From an uncultured Ignavibacteriales bacterium (lineage in GTDB: Bacteria; Zixibacteria; MSB-5A5; GN15; FEB-12), in NCBI GenBank assembly GCA_964518635.1, contig CAZFGK010000016.1, forward strand, positions 2,943-66,942: DNA of 64,000 nucleotides, read 5' to 3'. The notes under the pieces were generated by a model. That model made no database searches and had not been told where the DNA came from. It saw nothing but the letters and a program-made list of their open reading frames with translations. Below, piece after piece: positions 2,571-32,325 of this stretch. The translations under genes and the position numbers were made by a program. The first letter of the stretch is position 1. Every line of letters begins with the position of its first letter.

Positions 2571-2642
2571 GCCATTGCGCTCGTACGAAATGGCATATAT
2601 TTGATTTGTATGGGACGGGTATTCAGCCAATTCATCCGCAAT

Positions 2643-4040
2643 ATGAAGCTCGCTCTCTTGCTGAACGCAATGGTCGCTACAGTAATTGTGATCAGTTGCA
2701 ATGAAAAAAGTGCTCCTACAGATGCTGGTGGAAACAATGGGAGCGGAGTTACCATCGATACGGCGGGAAAGTTATTTGTCGGTCAGGGAGCAAGCGGAAA
2801 TGGGACAAAAAGCAGCCCATTCGGCTCAATATGTCAAGCATTGGAAGTTGCAGGCCAGACTCCACACATTGATACAATACTTTTGTCATCAGGAACTTTT
2901 GAAGAGTCTCTGGATATTGGAATTGACGTCTATTTTTCTGGGAACAGGGATCCGCTTAAAGACTGGAGAGAGTTAGACTCCAAGAGTCTCGCGACTATCA
3001 TTTCTTCCCCAAAAGAGGATAGCACCACAATCGTTGTCAGAGGCGAATGTCGAGTTACGTTCAGAGCGCTGAAAATTTTCGGTCCAGACTCAGCAACTTC
3101 CGGTAATTCTGCAACATCTATAGTTGCTTCAAATGCAGAGTTGCACTTTTCGAATTGCACAGTAGTTGGTGGTGTTGGCAGTCGCGGTGCGAGTGGATTG
3201 AACGGGGTCTCTGGATCAGTGAGATTCGCTACGTTGCCATCTCAGGACTTGATCATCCCGCGAGGCGGAAGAGGAGGAAGTCCGAAGTGGCGAGATTGTG
3301 ACTTTGTTCTTCATAATGGATCGCCCGGTGAGAGAGGATGGGCTGCGGATGGAACTCAAACCGGAGGACTCGGAAGCCAAAGTGGCCCCGGAGAAAAGGG
3401 AGCCGATGGAGCTTCGGGGAACAACGGAAGGGGTGCAGGGACTTCTACTACATTTAGGACTCATTTTGCGGTAACAGTTCCAGTTATCAACTCAGGAGAA
3501 GATGGTGGAGTCGGCATAAGTGGAAGTGGAGCTGGCGGGGCTGGTGCTACTTATTCTCCACACCCACAGTGTGGCAACCTTTTTCCTCATTGTCCGTGTA
3601 GTGACGAGCATCAGCCGTGCAATGGTGGAAGAGGCGGGCCAGGTGGGGAAGGCGGTAAGGGAGGAATAGGCGGTGCTTCCTCTTATGCGTTTGCACTTTC
3701 AGGAGTTCAGTTGTTTCTCGACTCATGTACTATATCAGGAGGTCGAGGCGGTGATGGGGGTGTCGGAGGGTACGGCGGTGTCGGGATGGACGGATTTGAG
3801 AGTGTCTGTATTGGATCATTTGTGGGTCCGGTAAGCTCACCCGGTGGCGCGGGTGGCACTGGCGGGAACGGCGGCGGTGGCGCGGGGGGATGGAGTATCG
3901 GAATTCTCTCGATCAATTCTACGATTGTGAAAGATACAGCGACCACCATCACTCCCGGTACTCCGGGCAAGGGTGGAATTGGTCCGACTCCGGAAAGTAC
4001 CGGAGCCGACGGAAAAGCAGTGACGATTTTGGAGCTATGA
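2643..4040 (+). CDS. Gly-rich (PGRS-like) lipoprotein with an N-terminal DUF1565/pectin-lyase-like region
   Basis: Lipobox VISC after a hydrophobic stretch; G.GTKSSPFGSI..AL motif; long GGxGGxGG tracts. ATG 2643 chosen over the ORF start at 2601. Confidence 0.65.
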   Translation: MKLALLLNAMVATVIVISCNEKSAPTDAGGNNGSGVTIDTAGKLFVGQGASGNGTKSSPFGSICQALEVAGQTPHIDTILLSSGTFEESLDIGIDVYFSGNRDPLKDWRELDSKSLATIISSPKEDSTTIVVRGECRVTFRALKIFGPDSATSGNSATSIVASNAELHFSNCTVVGGVGSRGASGLNGVSGSVRFATLPSQDLIIPRGGRGGSPKWRDCDFVLHNGSPGERGWAADGTQTGGLGSQSGPGEKGADGASGNNGRGAGTSTTFRTHFAVTVPVINSGEDGGVGISGSGAGGAGATYSPHPQCGNLFPHCPCSDEHQPCNGGRGGPGGEGGKGGIGGASSYAFALSGVQLFLDSCTISGGRGGDGGVGGYGGVGMDGFESVCIGSFVGPVSSPGGAGGTGGNGGGGAGGWSIGILSINSTIVKDTATTITPGTPGKGGIGPTPESTGADGKAVTILEL

Positions 4041-15844: not shown

Positions 15845-15903
15845 ACAAGGCTGAGCAGGTCGGGATGAGTTTCCACTCATCTCGGCAACTCACAGGTCAT
15901 CAG

Positions 15904-17118
15904 ATGTCACTTACTAACACAAAAATCTTGATCGGCGTCAGCGGCGGCATCGCTGCCTATAAGATTCCGAACCTTGTTCGTCTGCTTCGCAAAGCCGGAG
16001 CCGAGGTGCAGGTGATGATGACCGACTCAGCGCGTGAATTTGTCACGCCACTCACCTTCGAAGCGGTCTCGCAGCGTCCGGTCTACACCTCGCTTTGGCA
16101 AGGGGGATCCGGTATGATCGCGACTCGTCATATTGATCTGGCTACCTGGCCCGATCTGGTTCTCGTTGCTCCTGCTACGGCAAATCTTCTTGCGAAACTA
16201 GCATGGGGACTCGCTGATGATTTCGTTACGACGGTTCTCTCCGCAACACCAAAGCCGATATTGCTCTCACCTGCGATGAATCCGGAGATGTGGGAGAATC
16301 GTGCGACACAGGAGAATCTGGTTCGCCTCAAACATCTCGGTTACGAGATTATCGATCCGGATGAGGGCTCGATGGCCTGCGAAACCGTCGGTGTTGGTCG
16401 CATGCCCGAGCCGGAAGCACTCTTCTCCGTGATCGAAAAATATCTGGAAGAAGAGTCCGAGCTTCGTGAGAAATTGTCTGGACGAAAAGTGATAGTCACG
16501 GCCGGGCCCACACGGGAAGCAATCGATCCGGTTCGCTATCTCTCGAATCGAAGTTCCGGCAAGATGGGATATGCCATCGCTCGCGCTGCCGTACGAGCCG
16601 GAGCCGAAACCACTCTCATCAGTGGACCGGTCTCGCTTGATCCGGTACGGGGTGCGTCGATGCAGTACATCGAAACCACCGATTCACTCTGCCGGGAAGT
16701 GCTCTCCCATTTTGCTGATGCAGATTGTCTGATCATGGCGGCAGCGCCGGCTGATTTTACTCCCACAACAATTTCGAAAACGAAAATCAAGAAGCACGCG
16801 GGGAGTCTTCCCGATCTGCCGCTCTCTCCGACCGTCGACATTCTTGCCAAAGTGTCGAAGACTCGCAAAGCACATCAGCGGGTGGTTGGTTTTGCCCTTG
16901 AAACTGATCACGCTCTCGCCAATGCCAAAACAAAGCTGACTGAAAAGATACTCGACCTGATTGTTCTCAATTCCTTATCCGATCCCGGTGCCGGATTTGA
17001 ACATGATACCAATAAGCTCACGCTTATCCACAAAGGTGGGAATTCGGAGGACTGGCCGCTCATGTCGAAGCGGGAAGCGGCGATCCGCCTGATTCGAACT
17101 GTCGCGAATCTTTTCTAG
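15904..17118 (+). CDS. coaBC: Phosphopantothenoylcysteine decarboxylase / synthetase
   Basis: GVSGGIAAYK, APATAN, PAMN..MW, TAGPTREAIDPVRYLSNRSSGKMG, GFALET. Confidence 0.97.
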   Translation: MSLTNTKILIGVSGGIAAYKIPNLVRLLRKAGAEVQVMMTDSAREFVTPLTFEAVSQRPVYTSLWQGGSGMIATRHIDLATWPDLVLVAPATANLLAKLAWGLADDFVTTVLSATPKPILLSPAMNPEMWENRATQENLVRLKHLGYEIIDPDEGSMACETVGVGRMPEPEALFSVIEKYLEEESELREKLSGRKVIVTAGPTREAIDPVRYLSNRSSGKMGYAIARAAVRAGAETTLISGPVSLDPVRGASMQYIETTDSLCREVLSHFADADCLIMAAAPADFTPTTISKTKIKKHAGSLPDLPLSPTVDILAKVSKTRKAHQRVVGFALETDHALANAKTKLTEKILDLIVLNSLSDPGAGFEHDTNKLTLIHKGGNSEDWPLMSKREAAIRLIRTVANLF

Positions 17119-17149
17119 TCACATTCTGTCCACATCACCCTGTGGGCAA
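17024..17149. promoter_or_regulatory. Candidate DnaA boxes upstream of udg-dnaB
   Basis: Perfect TTATCCACA at 17024-17032; CTGTCCACA at 17126-17134 and inverted TGTGGGCAA at 17141-17149 (2 mismatches each). Confidence 0.35.
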
Positions 17150-17241
17150 CAAAGTGCGCTAATAGTTTTTTCGAAAATGTGATGGCGAATTCGCCAAAGG
17201 GCTTTACGCTTACGATCTTGCCGCCTACGTTCACCATCGAC

Positions 17242-18018
17242 ATGGGAAAGAACGAACACAAACATCACGCATCAAATGAGCTTTCAAATCGTGGAAGTGA
17301 TATTACCCTTACTCGTGAGTTGCTCCAGCATGCCATTGAGGCGGAGCGATCACTCGGAACTGACTCGATCATTCTGAATCGAACTACGAAAGTTGACATT
17401 CCCAAAGTACAGATCAGCAGTAGTCTTGCCGAAGCAGAAATTCTATATCCCAGTCTGGAAGCGCATCGAGAGGCAATTTGTAATTGCCAGAAATGTCCTC
17501 TGGGCGCGACGCGTAACAAGTTTGTGTATGGGGTTGGTCATCCGAAGGCGCGTGTCCTGTTTATCGGTGAAGGGCCGGGGGCAGATGAAGACCGTATCGG
17601 TGAACCATTCGTCGGTCGGGCCGGACAACTCCTCGACAAGATTCTCATCTCTATCGAGCTGAATCGTGAGATCGCCTATATCGCGAATGTGGTCAAGTGC
17701 CGTCCCCCGGGCAATCGGGTCCCATCGCCGGAAGAGATGACCGCCTGTCGTCCGTATCTGAATGAACAGATTCGCCTGATCAAACCTGATCTGATCTGTT
17801 GTTTGGGGCGGACTGCCTCACTTGCCATGCTGCCGCATACAAAGGAGTTTTCACTCCTGAAAATTCGCCAGCAATGGCATGATGTGATGGGGATCCCGAC
17901 GATTGTCACCTATCATCCAGCAGCGTTGCTGCGTGACCCGAAATATAAACGGGACTGCTGGGAGGATATGAAACTTCTCAAGGCCCGATATGACCTTCTT
18001 CCGAAGAGAGTTGGATAG
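17242..18018 (+). CDS. udg: Uracil-DNA glycosylase family 4 (Fe-S)
   Basis: [47 protein letters not shown]. Confidence 0.93.
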
Positions 18019-18066
18019 CATGAGGGAGGTTGCAATTGGACAGAATATTAGTTACCTATTTGACTT

Positions 18067-19494
18067 ATGTCAGATGTTCAAAGAAAGAAAGGTTCACTTG
18101 AGCCGCCGCACTCGATTGATGCTGAGATAGCAGTCTTAGGTTCGATCATGAAGGACCCGGAAGCCATGAACCGGGTAGTAGAAGTGATCGATAGCGAAGT
18201 CCACTTTTACAGTTTAAGACATCGTAAAATATTCGCGGCAATTCTAGAGCTATACAAATTATCCTTGCCATTCGACCTCTCAATGGTAAGTGAAAAGCTG
18301 CTATCTACCGGCAATTTGGATTCGATTGGAGGTCGGTCTACTCTAGTCGAAATCGTCGAAATGGTTGGAGCTACGGCGCACGCAAGGCATTTTGCAGATA
18401 TTGTTCTAGAAAGGTCACTGCTTAGGCAGCTAGTTCAAGCGTCTTCAGAAGTTTCCGAAAACTGTTACAGATCAGGCGTGTCCGCAGACGAGCTGTTAGA
18501 TCAGGCAGAATCTGTCATTTTTCAACTTTCAGAGTACAAGTTAAGAAAAGGTTTCGTATCGATAGACAAGCCTGTTGAGACAATTTTTACTAGAATTCAG
18601 TCTGACCCTGATGATCCCATTTTTCATGATATCGTAAAGACGGGGTATTCTAGGCTAGATGAATTGATAGAGGGTCTTCACAAAGGTGATCTTGTGATTA
18701 TAGCAGGAAGACCAGCAATGGGAAAAACTGCACTAGCAATGAACATTGCAGAAAACATAGCACTCGGTAGTAAGCTTCCCGTTGGCATATTTTCCCTAGA
18801 AATGTCAAAGGAGCAGTTAGTTACCAGAATGTTGTGCGGACAGGCCAGAGTAAACGCGAAAAAAATTAGAAGGGGACACCTTAGCAACGTAGAGGTCGAT
18901 GCCCTTACAAGAGCTGGTGGCCCTTTGGCACTCGCTCCGATATATATTGACGATTCATCGACACTTACTTCACTAGAGTTGAAAGCAAAGGCACGTAGAC
19001 TAAAGCAACAAGTTCCCACCCTAAGCGCAATCATTGTTGATTATTTGCAATTAATGACTGCATCGGGAGGGTTTGAAAATAGACAACAAGAAGTTGCCCT
19101 AATTACTAGAAGCATGAAATCAATTGCTAAGGATCTTAACATACCCGTGATAGCAATTTCACAACTTTCTAGAATGGTCGAACAGAGAGGTAAGGATCGA
19201 GTCCCGCAATTGTCCGATTTGCGAGAGTCAGGAGCAATTGAACAAGATGCTGACATAGTTATGTTCGTTTATCGGGAAGAATACTACCTCAACCAAACAG
19301 AACGAAATGATCCCGACAATTACGCAAAGCTTGGTAAGGCTGAAGTGATTGTTGCGAAGCAAAGAAACGGTCCGACTGGGTCCGCTCATCTAGTATTTCT
19401 GAAAGAATATACTAGGTTTGAGAATCTTTCAGTCGAGAGTGAAATTGATGCACGAGAAGACAGAATTAAACAATCTGGCTACTCTCCTCTGTAA
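18067..19494 (+). CDS. dnaB: Replicative DNA helicase
   Basis: PPHSIDAE.AVLG, AGRPAMGKT, FSLEMS, IVDYLQL, SQLSR, LSDLRESGAIEQDAD, AKQRNGPTG. Confidence 0.98.
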   Translation: MSDVQRKKGSLEPPHSIDAEIAVLGSIMKDPEAMNRVVEVIDSEVHFYSLRHRKIFAAILELYKLSLPFDLSMVSEKLLSTGNLDSIGGRSTLVEIVEMVGATAHARHFADIVLERSLLRQLVQASSEVSENCYRSGVSADELLDQAESVIFQLSEYKLRKGFVSIDKPVETIFTRIQSDPDDPIFHDIVKTGYSRLDELIEGLHKGDLVIIAGRPAMGKTALAMNIAENIALGSKLPVGIFSLEMSKEQLVTRMLCGQARVNAKKIRRGHLSNVEVDALTRAGGPLALAPIYIDDSSTLTSLELKAKARRLKQQVPTLSAIIVDYLQLMTASGGFENRQQEVALITRSMKSIAKDLNIPVIAISQLSRMVEQRGKDRVPQLSDLRESGAIEQDADIVMFVYREEYYLNQTERNDPDNYAKLGKAEVIVAKQRNGPTGSAHLVFLKEYTRFENLSVESEIDAREDRIKQSGYSPL

Positions 19495-19541
19495 TAGAAT
19501 TTAATCGTGATAAAATACGAAGCATAGGATAGGCTTCCCTC

Positions 19542-20903
19542 ATGGCGATGATCAAGGCAGCACAAAAGACACTCTATGTCTGTGCACAGTGTGGGGCAGG
19601 ACATCAGAAATGGCAGGGGCAATGCCGGGAATGTGGTGCCTGGAATTCTCTCGCCGAAGAACGTCTGAGCAGCTCCAAGAAAAAGCACGCCAGCAACGCC
19701 CCGGAATCAGTTTCACTCGCATCGATCAAACCAAGCCAATTGTCCGGTCTCTTGAGCGGGATTGCTGAGTTTGATCGTGTGCTTGGCGGCGGTCTGGTTC
19801 GCGGCATGAGTGTGCTTCTCTCCGGTGATCCGGGGATCGGCAAATCGACGCTCTTGTTGCAGGCAGCCGCTAGTTATGCCGCCCTCGGAGCGAGAGTCCT
19901 CTATGTCGCCGGGGAAGAATCACTCGATCAGATCAAACTTCGCGCCACACGACTCGGTCTGAAAGATTCATCGCTGGAAGTTGTGTCATCGACCGTGGTC
20001 GATGAACTCGCCGCTTTGCTTTCATCCAAGCCGTTTGATGTGCTCTTGGTCGATTCAGTGCAGACTCTTTCGAGTCCGCTCTTTGATTCACCTCCCGGAA
20101 CTGTCGCGCAGGTGCGTGAGTCGGCATACCAACTTACGTTGATCGCCAAAAGTTCGGGGACAAGTGTGATCATGATCGGTCATGTGACCAAAGAGGGGCT
20201 GGTCGCTGGTCCCAAAGTGCTTGAACATATTGTCGATACGGTGCTGACCTTTGAAGGGGATCAGACCCATCTGCATCGCATTTTGCGCGCGACAAAAAAC
20301 AGATTCGGCAGCACCAGTGAAATCGGCGTTTTTCGCATGACCGCACGAGGGCTCGAAGAGGTCGCGAATCCGTCGGCAGTCTTTCTTGGTCAACATGAGA
20401 AACCAACCCCCGGCTCGGCAGTGACCGCAATCTGCGAGGGAACCCGCACGATTCTCGTCGAAGTGCAGGCCCTTGTCACATCGGCTGCCTACGGCAGCCC
20501 GCAACGTGTCGCCAGTGGAATCGATCAGCGGAAATTGAGTTTGCTGCTGGCGATTCTCGAAAAGCGGGAAGGGTACCCACTCTCGCAGCAGGACGTATTT
20601 GTTTCTGTGACAGGTGGGCTTCGTCTGGTCGAACCAGCAGCAGATGCCGCCTTTGCGACGGCGATTATCTCTTCACTCACCAATCGACCGGTTGCCTCGC
20701 GGATGGTGGTGGTTGGAGAACTTGGACTCAGCGGAGAGATGCGTCCGGTCAGTCAGCTTGAACAGCGCATCAGTGAAGCAGCCCGTCTCGGCTTTACATC
20801 ACTCGCCGTTCCGAAGCAATCGATGGAGAAAAGTGGGAATTCGACCGGCTCAGTGCATCAGGTCGCCGATGTTGCCGGACTGATGCAAATTGTCTTCGAT
20901 TGA
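19542..20903 (+). CDS. radA: DNA repair protein RadA/Sms
   Basis: Zinc finger CAQCG..KWQGQC.ECGAWN, GDPGIGKST, KNRFG, Lon-like C-terminus. Confidence 0.97.
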   Translation: MAMIKAAQKTLYVCAQCGAGHQKWQGQCRECGAWNSLAEERLSSSKKKHASNAPESVSLASIKPSQLSGLLSGIAEFDRVLGGGLVRGMSVLLSGDPGIGKSTLLLQAAASYAALGARVLYVAGEESLDQIKLRATRLGLKDSSLEVVSSTVVDELAALLSSKPFDVLLVDSVQTLSSPLFDSPPGTVAQVRESAYQLTLIAKSSGTSVIMIGHVTKEGLVAGPKVLEHIVDTVLTFEGDQTHLHRILRATKNRFGSTSEIGVFRMTARGLEEVANPSAVFLGQHEKPTPGSAVTAICEGTRTILVEVQALVTSAAYGSPQRVASGIDQRKLSLLLAILEKREGYPLSQQDVFVSVTGGLRLVEPAADAAFATAIISSLTNRPVASRMVVVGELGLSGEMRPVSQLEQRISEAARLGFTSLAVPKQSMEKSGNSTGSVHQVADVAGLMQIVFD

Positions 20904-20974: not shown

Positions 20975-22120
20975 ATGTCCTCAAACAACACTGCACTCTA
21001 CACGCAATTCTCATCCGACGGGCTTGCTCGTCGTGGTCGTCTCAACACCGATCACGGTACCGTCGAGACTCCGGCATTCATGCCCGTAGGGACATCAAGT
21101 GCGGTGAAAGCTCTTACGATGGAAGATATTGAGCATGCCGGTGCCGAGATGATTCTTGGTAATACCTATCATCTCTATCTGCGCCCTGGACATGAACTGA
21201 TTCGTCGCCTGGGTGGGCTTGCGGCATTCAATGCCTGGAAGAAACCGACTCTGACTGATTCTGGTGGCTTTCAGATTTTTTCACTCCGTGATCTTTCTGT
21301 ACTCGATGACAACGGGGTCGAATTCAAGTCTCATCTGGATGGATCGAAACATCGCTTTACCCCTGAGAAAGTGATGGAGATTGAACAGGCAATCGGGGCA
21401 GATATTATCATGGTGCTCGATCAGTGTGCCCCCTATCCCTGTAGCCATGAAGAAGCGGCAACGGCAGTAACTCGCACCACAGCATGGGCAAAGCGAGCAA
21501 AAATCTATCTCGCGGAACATCCCGAAGATTCCAAGTGGCGACAATTCCTCTTCGGCATCGTGCAGGGATCAGTGAATGCAGAGTTGCGTGTGCAATCGGC
21601 AAAAGAGCTAGTCGATCTGGATTTTCCCGGCTACGCAGTTGGTGGCTTATCGGTAGGCGAGCCGAAGCCACTCATGGAAGAGATGCTTGCGGCGACGATG
21701 CCACAGCTACCGACTGATCGTCCGCGTTATCTGATGGGGGTTGGATATCCTGAGGATATTCTGATGGCGGTGTCGTATGGAATCGACATGTTCGATTGTG
21801 TCCTTCCGACCCGAAATGCCCGCACCGGCGCGGTCTTCACTTCCCGCGGGCCACTAGTCTATCGGAATGCCGAGTATGCCGATGATCCTCGTCCACTTGA
21901 TGAAGCATGCAATTGCCCTTGTTGCAAACGGTATAGCCGGGCATACCTGAGGCATCTGTACAATCAATCGGAAATTACTGCGATGGTCTTGTCGTCAGTT
22001 CACAATACTTTCTTTTTTCAGCATCTCATGCAGGGGATTCGCAAGGCAATCGAAGAGAAACGCTTCGATGCATTCAGAAAATCATTCTTGTCGGTCTATC
22101 AACAGGGGCAAATTCGATAG
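20975..22120 (+). CDS. tgt: Queuine tRNA-ribosyltransferase
   Basis: TPAFMPVGT, GNTYHLYLRPG, TDSGGFQ, GGLSVGEP, DCVLPTRNAR, CxCxxC. Confidence 0.97.
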   Translation: MSSNNTALYTQFSSDGLARRGRLNTDHGTVETPAFMPVGTSSAVKALTMEDIEHAGAEMILGNTYHLYLRPGHELIRRLGGLAAFNAWKKPTLTDSGGFQIFSLRDLSVLDDNGVEFKSHLDGSKHRFTPEKVMEIEQAIGADIIMVLDQCAPYPCSHEEAATAVTRTTAWAKRAKIYLAEHPEDSKWRQFLFGIVQGSVNAELRVQSAKELVDLDFPGYAVGGLSVGEPKPLMEEMLAATMPQLPTDRPRYLMGVGYPEDILMAVSYGIDMFDCVLPTRNARTGAVFTSRGPLVYRNAEYADDPRPLDEACNCPCCKRYSRAYLRHLYNQSEITAMVLSSVHNTFFFQHLMQGIRKAIEEKRFDAFRKSFLSVYQQGQIR

Positions 22121-31488: not shown

Positions 31489-32325
31489 TTGAAGCCAAAA
31501 ATACTTCGGGATGAATATCCAAGCATTCGAAAGGCATTTGAGAGTTTAGGCGAGGTTCGAGGGCAGGTCTGGAAGGCACTTGAATCCAAATCAAGTGACG
31601 ATCCTAGACTCTTCGTTTACTTCCAAGCAGAGTTTCTTCGAGTTAACGACTTCTGCAAGGCCATACAGATGCTTTCAGACGATCTGAGGAGTGAACCGGC
31701 ATCGGTTTTGTGTAGATCTTTGCTTGAAGTAGTTTGGCACATGAACTTCATACTCACCAGTCAAAACCCTACTGCTGTGTGTCTATCTCTCAATGTCAAA
31801 TCAATAAAGGAACTACTAAAGCAACACGACTCTAAGTCATTCAAGTCTGGCGTCGGAAAACCGTTGAGTGATGATCCTGAAGAATTGAGAAGTCTTTTGG
31901 GCGAATTGAAAAGTGAATTGAGAGATATAGAGGAGCCTGGGAGTGACCAAGACATCGGTTCAATTTCTGTTGAAAGAATTTGTCAAATATTGGATGAACG
32001 TATGTCTGCTAATGCTGGTGAAAAGACTACGAGGACTCAGCAAGAGTATGATCGCCATTATCGAAACTGGTCTCAGCCCACTCATGGTTTGATTTTGGGA
32101 GTCAGAAATTATTTCAAGAAGGATGGAAGTTTCTACGATCCCAGAAGTGAAGAGGCGATCTCCAGGTCGTTATTTACGGCCCTGGCGACCTTAGAATTCT
32201 CTCTCAGGTTTATGGGCTTGGGCAATGATTACTTCAAGCTGGGACAAGAAGAACTCATCCGAAGTGAGTTTCAGAACTATTCTGTGCTGCTGGGGGAGTT
32301 TGAACAGAGATTCAATTGGTCCTAA
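31489..32325 (+). CDS. Hypothetical protein, DUF5677-like
   Basis: 278-aa ORF with A.VLCRSLLE and Y..HYRNWSQPTHG motifs resembling DUF5677/HEPN-like helical proteins; AT-richer than the flanks; TTG start. Confidence 0.5.
   Translation: MKPKILRDEYPSIRKAFESLGEVRGQVWKALESKSSDDPRLFVYFQAEFLRVNDFCKAIQMLSDDLRSEPASVLCRSLLEVVWHMNFILTSQNPTAVCLSLNVKSIKELLKQHDSKSFKSGVGKPLSDDPEELRSLLGELKSELRDIEEPGSDQDIGSISVERICQILDERMSANAGEKTTRTQQEYDRHYRNWSQPTHGLILGVRNYFKKDGSFYDPRSEEAISRSLFTALATLEFSLRFMGLGNDYFKLGQEELIRSEFQNYSVLLGEFEQRFNWS

Follow-up and report, generated by a model that had tools for sequence, protein, structure and literature searches.

The only replicative helicase gene of a Zixibacteria draft genome is an AT-rich, CTAG-dense island that may reflect recent in-place replacement

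Introduction

Displacement of genes in situ within conserved operons, by xenologous or orthologous counterparts, was reportedly described by Omelchenko and colleagues in 2003. Here we analysed a gene that resembles such cases, the replicative DNA helicase gene dnaB, located at positions 18067-19494 of a 64-kb window (the whole stretch of DNA analysed, 64,000 nucleotides; G000:C16:2943-66942) from a bacterial draft genome, G000, whose placement in Zixibacteria comes from the names given to its DnaB and RadA relatives. The likeness lies in a single foreign-looking gene with native neighbours, no mobile genes nearby and no second copy. Classic cases of displacement show a discordant protein tree, whereas the dnaB tree agrees with those of its neighbours and the evidence for exchange is purely compositional. 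As the DnaB tree is concordant, any donor would have to be of the same lineage. Our best explanation, to which we give a probability of roughly 0.5, is that dnaB was recently replaced in place by an allele of the same lineage coming from an AT-rich, CTAG-tolerant gene pool.

Two further systems are close to this one. In Halobacterium salinarum, CTAG is strongly avoided outside low-GC (guanine plus cytosine) horizontally acquired islands, in which it is denser (PMC7002104). CTAG is likewise avoided in the resident DNA of G000 (observed/expected ratio of 0.51 in native open reading frames (ORFs) and 0.93 in atypical ones). However, the H. salinarum islands are large, rich in mobile elements and made up of accessory genes, whereas dnaB stands alone as one essential gene, 1.4 kb long, in its usual place. 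In Vibrionaceae, replicative helicase loaders have been replaced by viral genes (PMC11087808), and the likeness is that components of the machinery for helicase loading have repeatedly changed hands by horizontal transfer. There, the loader was replaced by a non-homologous gene, whereas in G000 it is the helicase gene that looks exchanged, for a homologous allele. That the loader, DciA, or dnaA was replaced along with dnaB was considered and rejected, since DciA and DnaA are both present with native composition.

Gene displacement in place and compositional islands are already known kinds of phenomenon. What is unusual here is that the gene encodes the sole replicative helicase, that no other ORF of the genome is as atypical, and that the DnaB protein tree gives no hint of exchange. 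In the literature on dnaB codon usage and horizontal transfer, on displacement in situ and on CTAG under-representation, we found no comparable dnaB case, although one may exist.

Composition and bounds of the dnaB island

A sequence-only reading of the window had described dnaB as an intact gene with no mobile genes nearby, forming a sharply bounded AT-rich island with frequent CTA, TTA, AGA, AGG and ATA codons and 14 CTAG sites. All of these observations were confirmed. The source genome is a 2.87-Mb draft (2,872,418 bases in 73 contigs, 51.3% GC, 96% complete). The DnaB protein carries both Pfam domains and matches TIGR00665 (cellular replicative helicase DnaB) with 512 bits, above the curated cut-off of 385.25; it stays below the cut-offs of the phage-type model TIGR03600 (379.7 vs. 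498.65) and of the island-type (SPI-7-type) model NF040583 (356.1 vs. 655). It is the sole DnaB_C match in this 96% complete genome (1 among 9 candidates). The island and its parts are as follows:

18067-19494, forward strand: dnaB, replicative DNA helicase, 475 amino acids (aa), intact, single copy (Pfam DnaB PF00772, E = 1e-26; DnaB_C PF03796, E = 1e-103)
18004-19569, no strand: compositional island of about 1.57 kb delimited by change points, comprising dnaB and both spacers, possibly with the last 4 udg codons and the first 9 radA codons
18019-18066: udg-dnaB spacer, 48 bases, 38% GC, in the lowest 13% of 148 comparable spacers
19495-19541: dnaB-radA spacer, 47 bases, 36% GC, in the lowest 5% of the 148 comparable spacers
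18244-19415, no strand: 14 CTAG sites, nine made of CTA (Leu) followed by a codon starting with G and five of NCT followed by AGA or AGG (Arg)

The GC content of dnaB is 42.9%, and 37.4% at third codon positions (GC3), with flanks of 51-54% GC. Along the sequence, GC is 0.40-0.45 within the island vs. 0.52-0.58 outside; the mean of the 148 comparable spacers is 46.8%. Genome-wide ranking was based on the 1,726 ORFs of at least 200 aa, whose median GC3 is 54% (vs. 37% in dnaB). Among them, dnaB ranks first for codon atypicality (distance from the codon usage of the genome) and for CTAG density, second for the summed share of CTA, TTA, AGA, AGG and ATA, and third for low GC3. CTA and TTA provide 27% and 13% of its Leu codons (4% and 4% in the genome), AGA and AGG 53% and 19% of its Arg codons (10% and 4%), and ATA 31% of its Ile codons (9%); these five codons make up 55 of the 475 codons of the gene.

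The shift extends over the whole gene and ends with it. The log-odds of foreign (atypical) codon usage was positive in 12 of 12 forty-codon blocks of dnaB, and at most 0.02 (native) in every block of coaBC, udg, radA and tgt. Bounds were set as maximum-likelihood change points of the per-codon foreign/native log-odds, with 2-log intervals: the left one lies at 18004 (interval 17953-18013), 4 codons ahead of the udg stop, and the right one at 19569 (interval 19471-19620), 9 codons inside radA. The compositional shift is confined to synonymous positions, the residuals of dnaB being z = -5.7 for GC3, z = -3.2 for first codon positions (GC1, which include Arg and Leu synonyms) and z = -0.5 for second codon positions (GC2).

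CTAG in dnaB and the contribution of codon bias

The window contains 60 CTAG. The 14 within dnaB stand exactly where the sequence-only reading had listed them (18244, 18343, 18406, 18430, 18590, 18650, 18655, 18733, 18796, 18973, 19106, 19169, 19390 and 19412); udg has none and radA has one (19870). In the whole genome CTAG occurs 1,622 times in 2,872,418 bases (0.56 per kb, vs. 9.8 per kb in dnaB). When CTAG was counted in 27,714 sliding windows of 1,428 bases across the genome, dnaB proved the densest locus: only two windows reached 14, both centred on dnaB, and the next best locus had 9.

Local codon bias accounts for more than half of the 14 sites, as shuffling the synonymous codons of dnaB itself yielded 7.9 ± 2.1 CTAG (P = 0.0044 for 14 or more in 10,000 shuffles). 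Re-drawing its codons from genomic usage yielded 1.2 ± 1.1 (maximum 7). In the same shuffle of its own codons, CTAG came second among 256 tetramers (z = 2.97), with GTGA first (z = 3.09); the residue is not significant, because with all 256 tetramers considered such an extreme is about what chance gives. The CTAG density of dnaB is therefore mostly a by-product of its codon bias.

CTAG was also compared between classes of ORFs, as the observed count against the number predicted from each gene's own codons:

Native ORFs (n = 1,434): observed 773, expected 1,514.6, ratio 0.51
Intermediate ORFs (n = 254): observed 228, expected 451, ratio 0.51
Low-GC atypical ORFs (n = 37): observed 93, expected 100.5, ratio 0.93
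dnaB (n = 1): observed 14, expected 7.7, ratio 1.82

The two-fold CTAG avoidance of the host is absent from dnaB, which has the largest excess over its own-codon expectation among the 1,726 ORFs. A resident gene with dnaB codons and two-fold avoidance is predicted to hold about 3.9 CTAG, vs. the 14 seen (Poisson P = 6e-5). Moreover, G follows CTA in 9 of 14 cases in dnaB, compared to 10 of 38 for other Leu codons (Fisher P = 0.02), whereas native genes show the opposite preference (0.26 vs. 0.35). No extended motif was apparent around the CTAG sites when the sequence was read by eye. The second-largest CTAG excess of the genome is found at G000:C2:126434-129004 (9 vs. 4.5 expected, GC3 of 0.46).

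Likeness to low-GC accessory genes

Codon usage of dnaB correlates with that of the 37 low-GC atypical ORFs (r = 0.83) better than with that of the 1,434 native ORFs (r = 0.48). The agreement with the atypical class covers shifts that run counter to the AT trend, with AAC, CAC, TAC and AAG all increased. No other housekeeping gene is present among the 20 most atypical ORFs after dnaB. Ten of these have no Pfam family, and the other ten carry GmrSD_N, ParB_N, DNA methylase, HD, DUF3800, Peptidase_M78 plus HTH (ImmA/IrrE-type), HSDR_N_2, DUF5677, DUF7666 and Trypsin_2. In a principal component analysis of codon usage, noise from two-codon families was dominant, and the result was left aside. A DUF5677 ORF of the low-GC atypical class (GC3 of 0.45) stands alone among native genes inside the window, at 31489-32325 (G000:C16:34431-35267).

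Orthologues and gene order

We compared dnaB with 39 orthologous loci from the family and the order. The GC of the gene minus that of its flanks was +0.007 on average in the orthologues (standard deviation 0.021, range -0.030 to +0.096) and -0.098 in G000; the GC3 residual ranged from z = -2.7 to z = +2.8 in the orthologues, compared to -5.7 in G000. The orthologues have 0-2 CTAG each (14 in total, none in 26 of the 39), and their CTA and AGA shares reach at most 9% of Leu and 30% of Arg. The sequence-only reading had left it to sister genomes whether the bias is shared; it is present in 0 of 39 orthologues, and the codon bias of this dnaB is lineage-specific.

The neighbouring genes have native composition and belong to a conserved row:

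15865-17118, forward strand: coaBC, native composition, conserved gene row (Pfam DFP and Flavoprotein)
17179-18018, forward strand: udg, uracil-DNA glycosylase family, native log-odds in all blocks, no CTAG (Pfam UDG)
19542-20903, forward strand: radA, native log-odds in all blocks, one CTAG at 19870 (Pfam families and RadA names in the sources)
20975-22120, forward strand: tgt, native composition, conserved gene row (Pfam TGT)

All 20 relatives examined keep the row coaBC-udg-dnaB-radA-tgt. In 16 of these, about 1.5 kb lies between dnaB and radA, which in G110 (L042:2997-4581) codes for an MlaE permease and an ABC ATPase. The two genes are adjacent in G000 (spacer 19495-19541), G106, G013, G039 and G004. 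The best matches of G000 to the MlaE permease and the ATPase are located together on contig C5 (43% and 38% identity).

Verification of the assembly

A chimeric assembly at the gene boundaries, which the sequence-only reading had said would refute all of its accounts, was not borne out: the island is real and is not an assembly chimera. Contigs assembled separately for each sequencing run from biofilter metagenomes bridged the udg/dnaB junction with 0 differences in three runs from two studies (X1 at 16936-18349, X2 at 17746-18659 and X3 at 17882-18197), and the dnaB/radA junction with 0 differences in two runs from one study (X1 at 19223-19647 and X2 at 18702-20047). The assembly may have been made from the sample of one bridging run, so the independence of these contigs is incomplete. 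Depth was even across the island and its flanks (4-7x). The genome is a draft in 73 contigs, which leaves room for a chimera of assembly or binning, but with separately assembled contigs of 0 differences spanning both junctions and an even depth of 4-7x this is extremely improbable.

In four runs, no contigs of 90-99% likeness covered dnaB; the contigs of that likeness matched only a 42-base conserved RadA motif (19823-19864). In run X6, contigs were obtained on both flanks and none over 18274-19747, at a depth of 2-7x, which may mean either that AT-rich DNA was poorly covered or that the allele differs.

Protein history and donor search

Quick maximum-likelihood trees grouped the G000 DnaB with those of G110 and G106 (support 100), with the protein P0001 as sister (support 95), and the G000 RadA with that of G106 (support 98). 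For UDG, the nearest genome was marginally G002 (62%), with G110 tied at 61%. G000 was long-branched in every gene examined. Its identity deficit, the amount by which its mean identity to other genomes is lower than their mean among themselves, was 0.091 for DnaB, 0.086 for RadA, 0.043 for CoaBC, 0.047 for UDG and 0.048 for Tgt.

Among 5.8 billion proteins, the best DnaB match was P0001 (65% identical, same clade) and the best non-self RadA match was that of G110 (62% identical). Judged by these matches, G000 appears to have no close relative known from DnaB or RadA. The labelled matches among the best 120 for DnaB were all named Zixibacteria, FCB-group or plain bacterium, and the best six were without name or Zixibacteria. 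In IMG/VR viral contigs, no match exceeded 43% identity over the full length, with partial matches of up to 54%; in metagenome contigs from JGI queried with P0001, the best match was 53%.

Codon usage of highly expressed genes

As a reference set for high expression we used nine ORFs on contig C43. Seven were confirmed by Pfam (L11, L1, L10, L7/L12, S12, S7 and EF-G), and the two large ORFs between the ribosomal genes are presumably rpoB and rpoC, by position and size. In this set, CTA, TTA, AGA, AGG, ATA and CAA account for 0.01, 0.01, 0.02, 0.00, 0.02 and 0.08 of the codons for their amino acids, and the codon enrichment of dnaB is anti-correlated with that of the set (r = -0.45, P = 3e-4). 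For CTA, TTA, AGA, AGG and ATA, tRNA genes are present in G000, including two tRNA-Arg(CCT). Whatever the origin of dnaB, synthesis of the helicase is probably slow and dependent on minor tRNAs, because 55 of its 475 codons are almost never used by the highly expressed genes of the host.

In-place replacement and the alternatives

According to the explanation we favour, the resident dnaB would recently have given way in place, together with its spacers, to another allele that had long resided in an AT-rich background without CTAG avoidance. The donor would belong to the organism's own Zixibacteria sub-lineage, and its background might be a mobile element that carried a dnaB taken from a host, or a relative with unusual composition that has not been sampled. 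A pool of this kind, whether of mobile elements or of an unsampled close relative, may also have supplied the accessory and defence genes of G000. The CTAG density would have no function of its own; it would arise from the heavy use of CTA (Leu) and AGA/AGG (Arg), with the avoidance of the host not yet imposed. A single replacement would account at once for the compositional shift along the whole gene, for the AT-richness of the spacers, for the abrupt limits of the island, for its resemblance to the accessory class and for the lack of CTAG avoidance. What we infer from these observations is the replacement itself, how recent it was, what kind of donor was involved and how translation is affected.

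Several results weigh against this explanation. With the nearest genome (G110), DnaB shares 61% identity, RadA 62%, CoaBC 57% and Tgt 70%. The DnaB protein tree is congruent with that of RadA, placing G000 in the same clade, and DnaB is no more divergent than RadA, a gene of native composition. The 96 replacements specific to the G000 DnaB show no AT-ward drift (24 to and 22 from F, Y, M, I, N and K), and the share of these six amino acids is as a genome of 53% GC predicts (z = +0.13). No donor of dnaB was found, phage proteins matching at 43% identity at most and plasmid proteins at 45% at most. The codon usage of the G000 gene occurs in no sampled Zixibacteria dnaB, low-GC genomes included: two orthologues whose GC3 is just as low (0.385 and 0.404) reach only r = 0.54 and 0.51 against it, so sampled low-GC Zixibacteria chromosomes are a poor model of the donor. 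No mobile genes were found near dnaB, no remnant of an older dnaB copy was found in the genome, and the attachment-site-like repeats at the island ends are short, imperfect and at chance level only. Finally, crossovers exactly at both gene ends are unexpected for homologous recombination between diverged DNA.

The sequence-only reading had offered three accounts of the island. The first, in-situ xenologous replacement, stands in part: the composition is foreign (r = 0.83 vs. 0.48, no CTAG avoidance), which is compatible with a donor of the same lineage. It fails for a distant donor (another phylum, a phage or a plasmid), which we regard as very improbable. Composition is what speaks for such a donor, but DnaB lies inside its own family in the tree, beside the same genomes as RadA, and its phylogeny, identity, synteny and divergence match those of RadA and the neighbouring genes, a congruence which that reading had itself counted against transfer. 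Furthermore, the labels among the best 120 protein matches stay within Zixibacteria, FCB-group and plain bacterium, the phage-type and island-type models are below their cut-offs, and no phage, plasmid or viral-contig match exceeds 45% over the full length. As far as the protein sequences tell, a donor outside the organism's own Zixibacteria sub-lineage is refuted. The second account, rare-codon throttling, would make dnaB a native gene de-optimised in place by selection at synonymous sites for the rarest codons, with helicase synthesis throttled or tied to minor tRNAs charged during starvation. The codons are indeed non-optimal, those enriched in dnaB being the ones avoided by the ribosomal-protein/EF-G set (r = -0.45, P = 3e-4), and they have dedicated tRNA genes, including the two tRNA-Arg(CCT). 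The shift affects only synonymous positions (GC3 z = -5.7, GC2 z = -0.5, amino-acid make-up unchanged), its bounds coincide with the ORF, and the protein is congruent and syntenic. The rare codons of the Escherichia coli replication gene dnaG are a classic precedent, also a replication gene rich in the rarest codons of its host. Compared to dnaG, however, the bias of the G000 dnaB is far stronger, with a GC drop of about 10 points and a CTAG excess, and it is absent in 39 orthologues. Against de-optimisation, too, 14 CTAG are seen where a resident gene predicts about 3.9 (Poisson P = 6e-5), CTA is preferentially followed by G (9/14 vs. 10/38) in reverse of native genes (0.26 vs. 0.35), and both spacers are AT-rich as well. 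Rewriting more than 100 weakly selected codons would also be far less direct than a change of promoter or start site. De-optimisation, which would need an added positive role for CTAG with nominal evidence, is in our view unlikely. That dnaB was never replaced, and that selection rewrote and holds its synonymous sites both in the rarest codons and in CTAG, seems distinctly unlikely; in that case helicase synthesis would depend on minor tRNAs, on methylation or binding directed by CTAG, or on both, and the gene would carry a specific, sequence-encoded brake on replication capacity found in no relative.

The third account placed the function in the DNA itself, with CTAG or the AT-rich tract selected as methylation or protein-binding sites that would regulate the helicase gene or mark the replication cycle. 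The CTAG excess of dnaB is the largest of the 1,726 ORFs (14 vs. 7.7-7.9, P = 0.0044) and CTA is preferentially followed by G (Fisher P = 0.02). In Leptospira interrogans, CTAG carrying 4-methylcytosine regulates transcription (PMC7708080), through sites in the promoter and the 5' coding region, and CTAG is there described as fairly evenly spread over that genome. In G000, a DNA methylase domain is found in one atypical ORF. What stands of the motif overlay is the nominal excess; codon bias gives 7.9 of the 14 sites, and a rank of 2 among 256 tetramers (z = 2.97, GTGA 3.09) is about the extreme expected by chance. Furthermore, CTAG does not explain the rise of ATA, TTA, CAA, GCA and GTT, no extended motif surrounds the sites in the sequence read by eye, more than 2 CTAG are present in 0 of 39 orthologues, and there is no Rfam match. 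Together these results render the overlay improbable. An origin-related function, suggested along with it, is not supported. Six DnaA-box-like sites (at most 1 mismatch) were found at G000:C8:6366-6753, just upstream of dnaA (C8:7151-8641), and this region is the likely replication origin; C8:5000-8641, with these six sites and dnaA, contains no CTAG. The dnaB island has no DnaA-box-like site, and on its 79-kb contig GC skew shows no inflection, the cumulative skew rising steadily. A role of the island as origin or terminus was rejected. Part of the probability belongs to none of the readings named here.

Implications

Essential single-copy replication genes are usually taken as stable vertical markers, and here such a gene, dnaB, looks more foreign than any other in the genome while the tree of its protein looks vertical. 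If in-place replacement is correct, core genes may be swapped in place by alleles of the same lineage without a trace in protein phylogenies, and such swaps would be missed by tree-based screens and be detectable by composition only. If selection is responsible instead, dnaB would offer a rare example of a replication protein whose codons were de-optimised over the entire gene. As a practical rule for a CTAG-avoiding genome, the CTAG count of a gene divided by the count that its own codons predict tells residents (0.5) from recent arrivals (about 1).

Further observations on the window and the genome

An Rfam scan of 17000-20500 gave no match at E values up to 0.1, and a hidden RNA in the dnaB island was rejected for this reason. 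An overlapping gene was rejected as well, the longest antisense ORF (18678-19034, 118 aa) having no Pfam match. Promoter and terminator scans revealed nothing that distinguishes dnaB, and no RNA sequencing run was listed as containing this DNA.

Aragorn predicted 48 tRNA genes in G000, including tRNA-Sec; the two tRNA-Arg(CCT) decode the rarest Arg codon of the genome. The contig with the reference genes (G000:C43:1-15024; nusG, rplKAJL, two large ORFs, rpsL, rpsG and fusA) ends directly after fusA. None of the 9 GTP_EFTU matches in the genome is a frame of EF-Tu size, and tuf is probably missing from the assembly. In the window, a moderately atypical ORF is located at 2601-4040 (G000:C16:5543-6982), with a GC3 of 0.41 and a codon score of -0.08.

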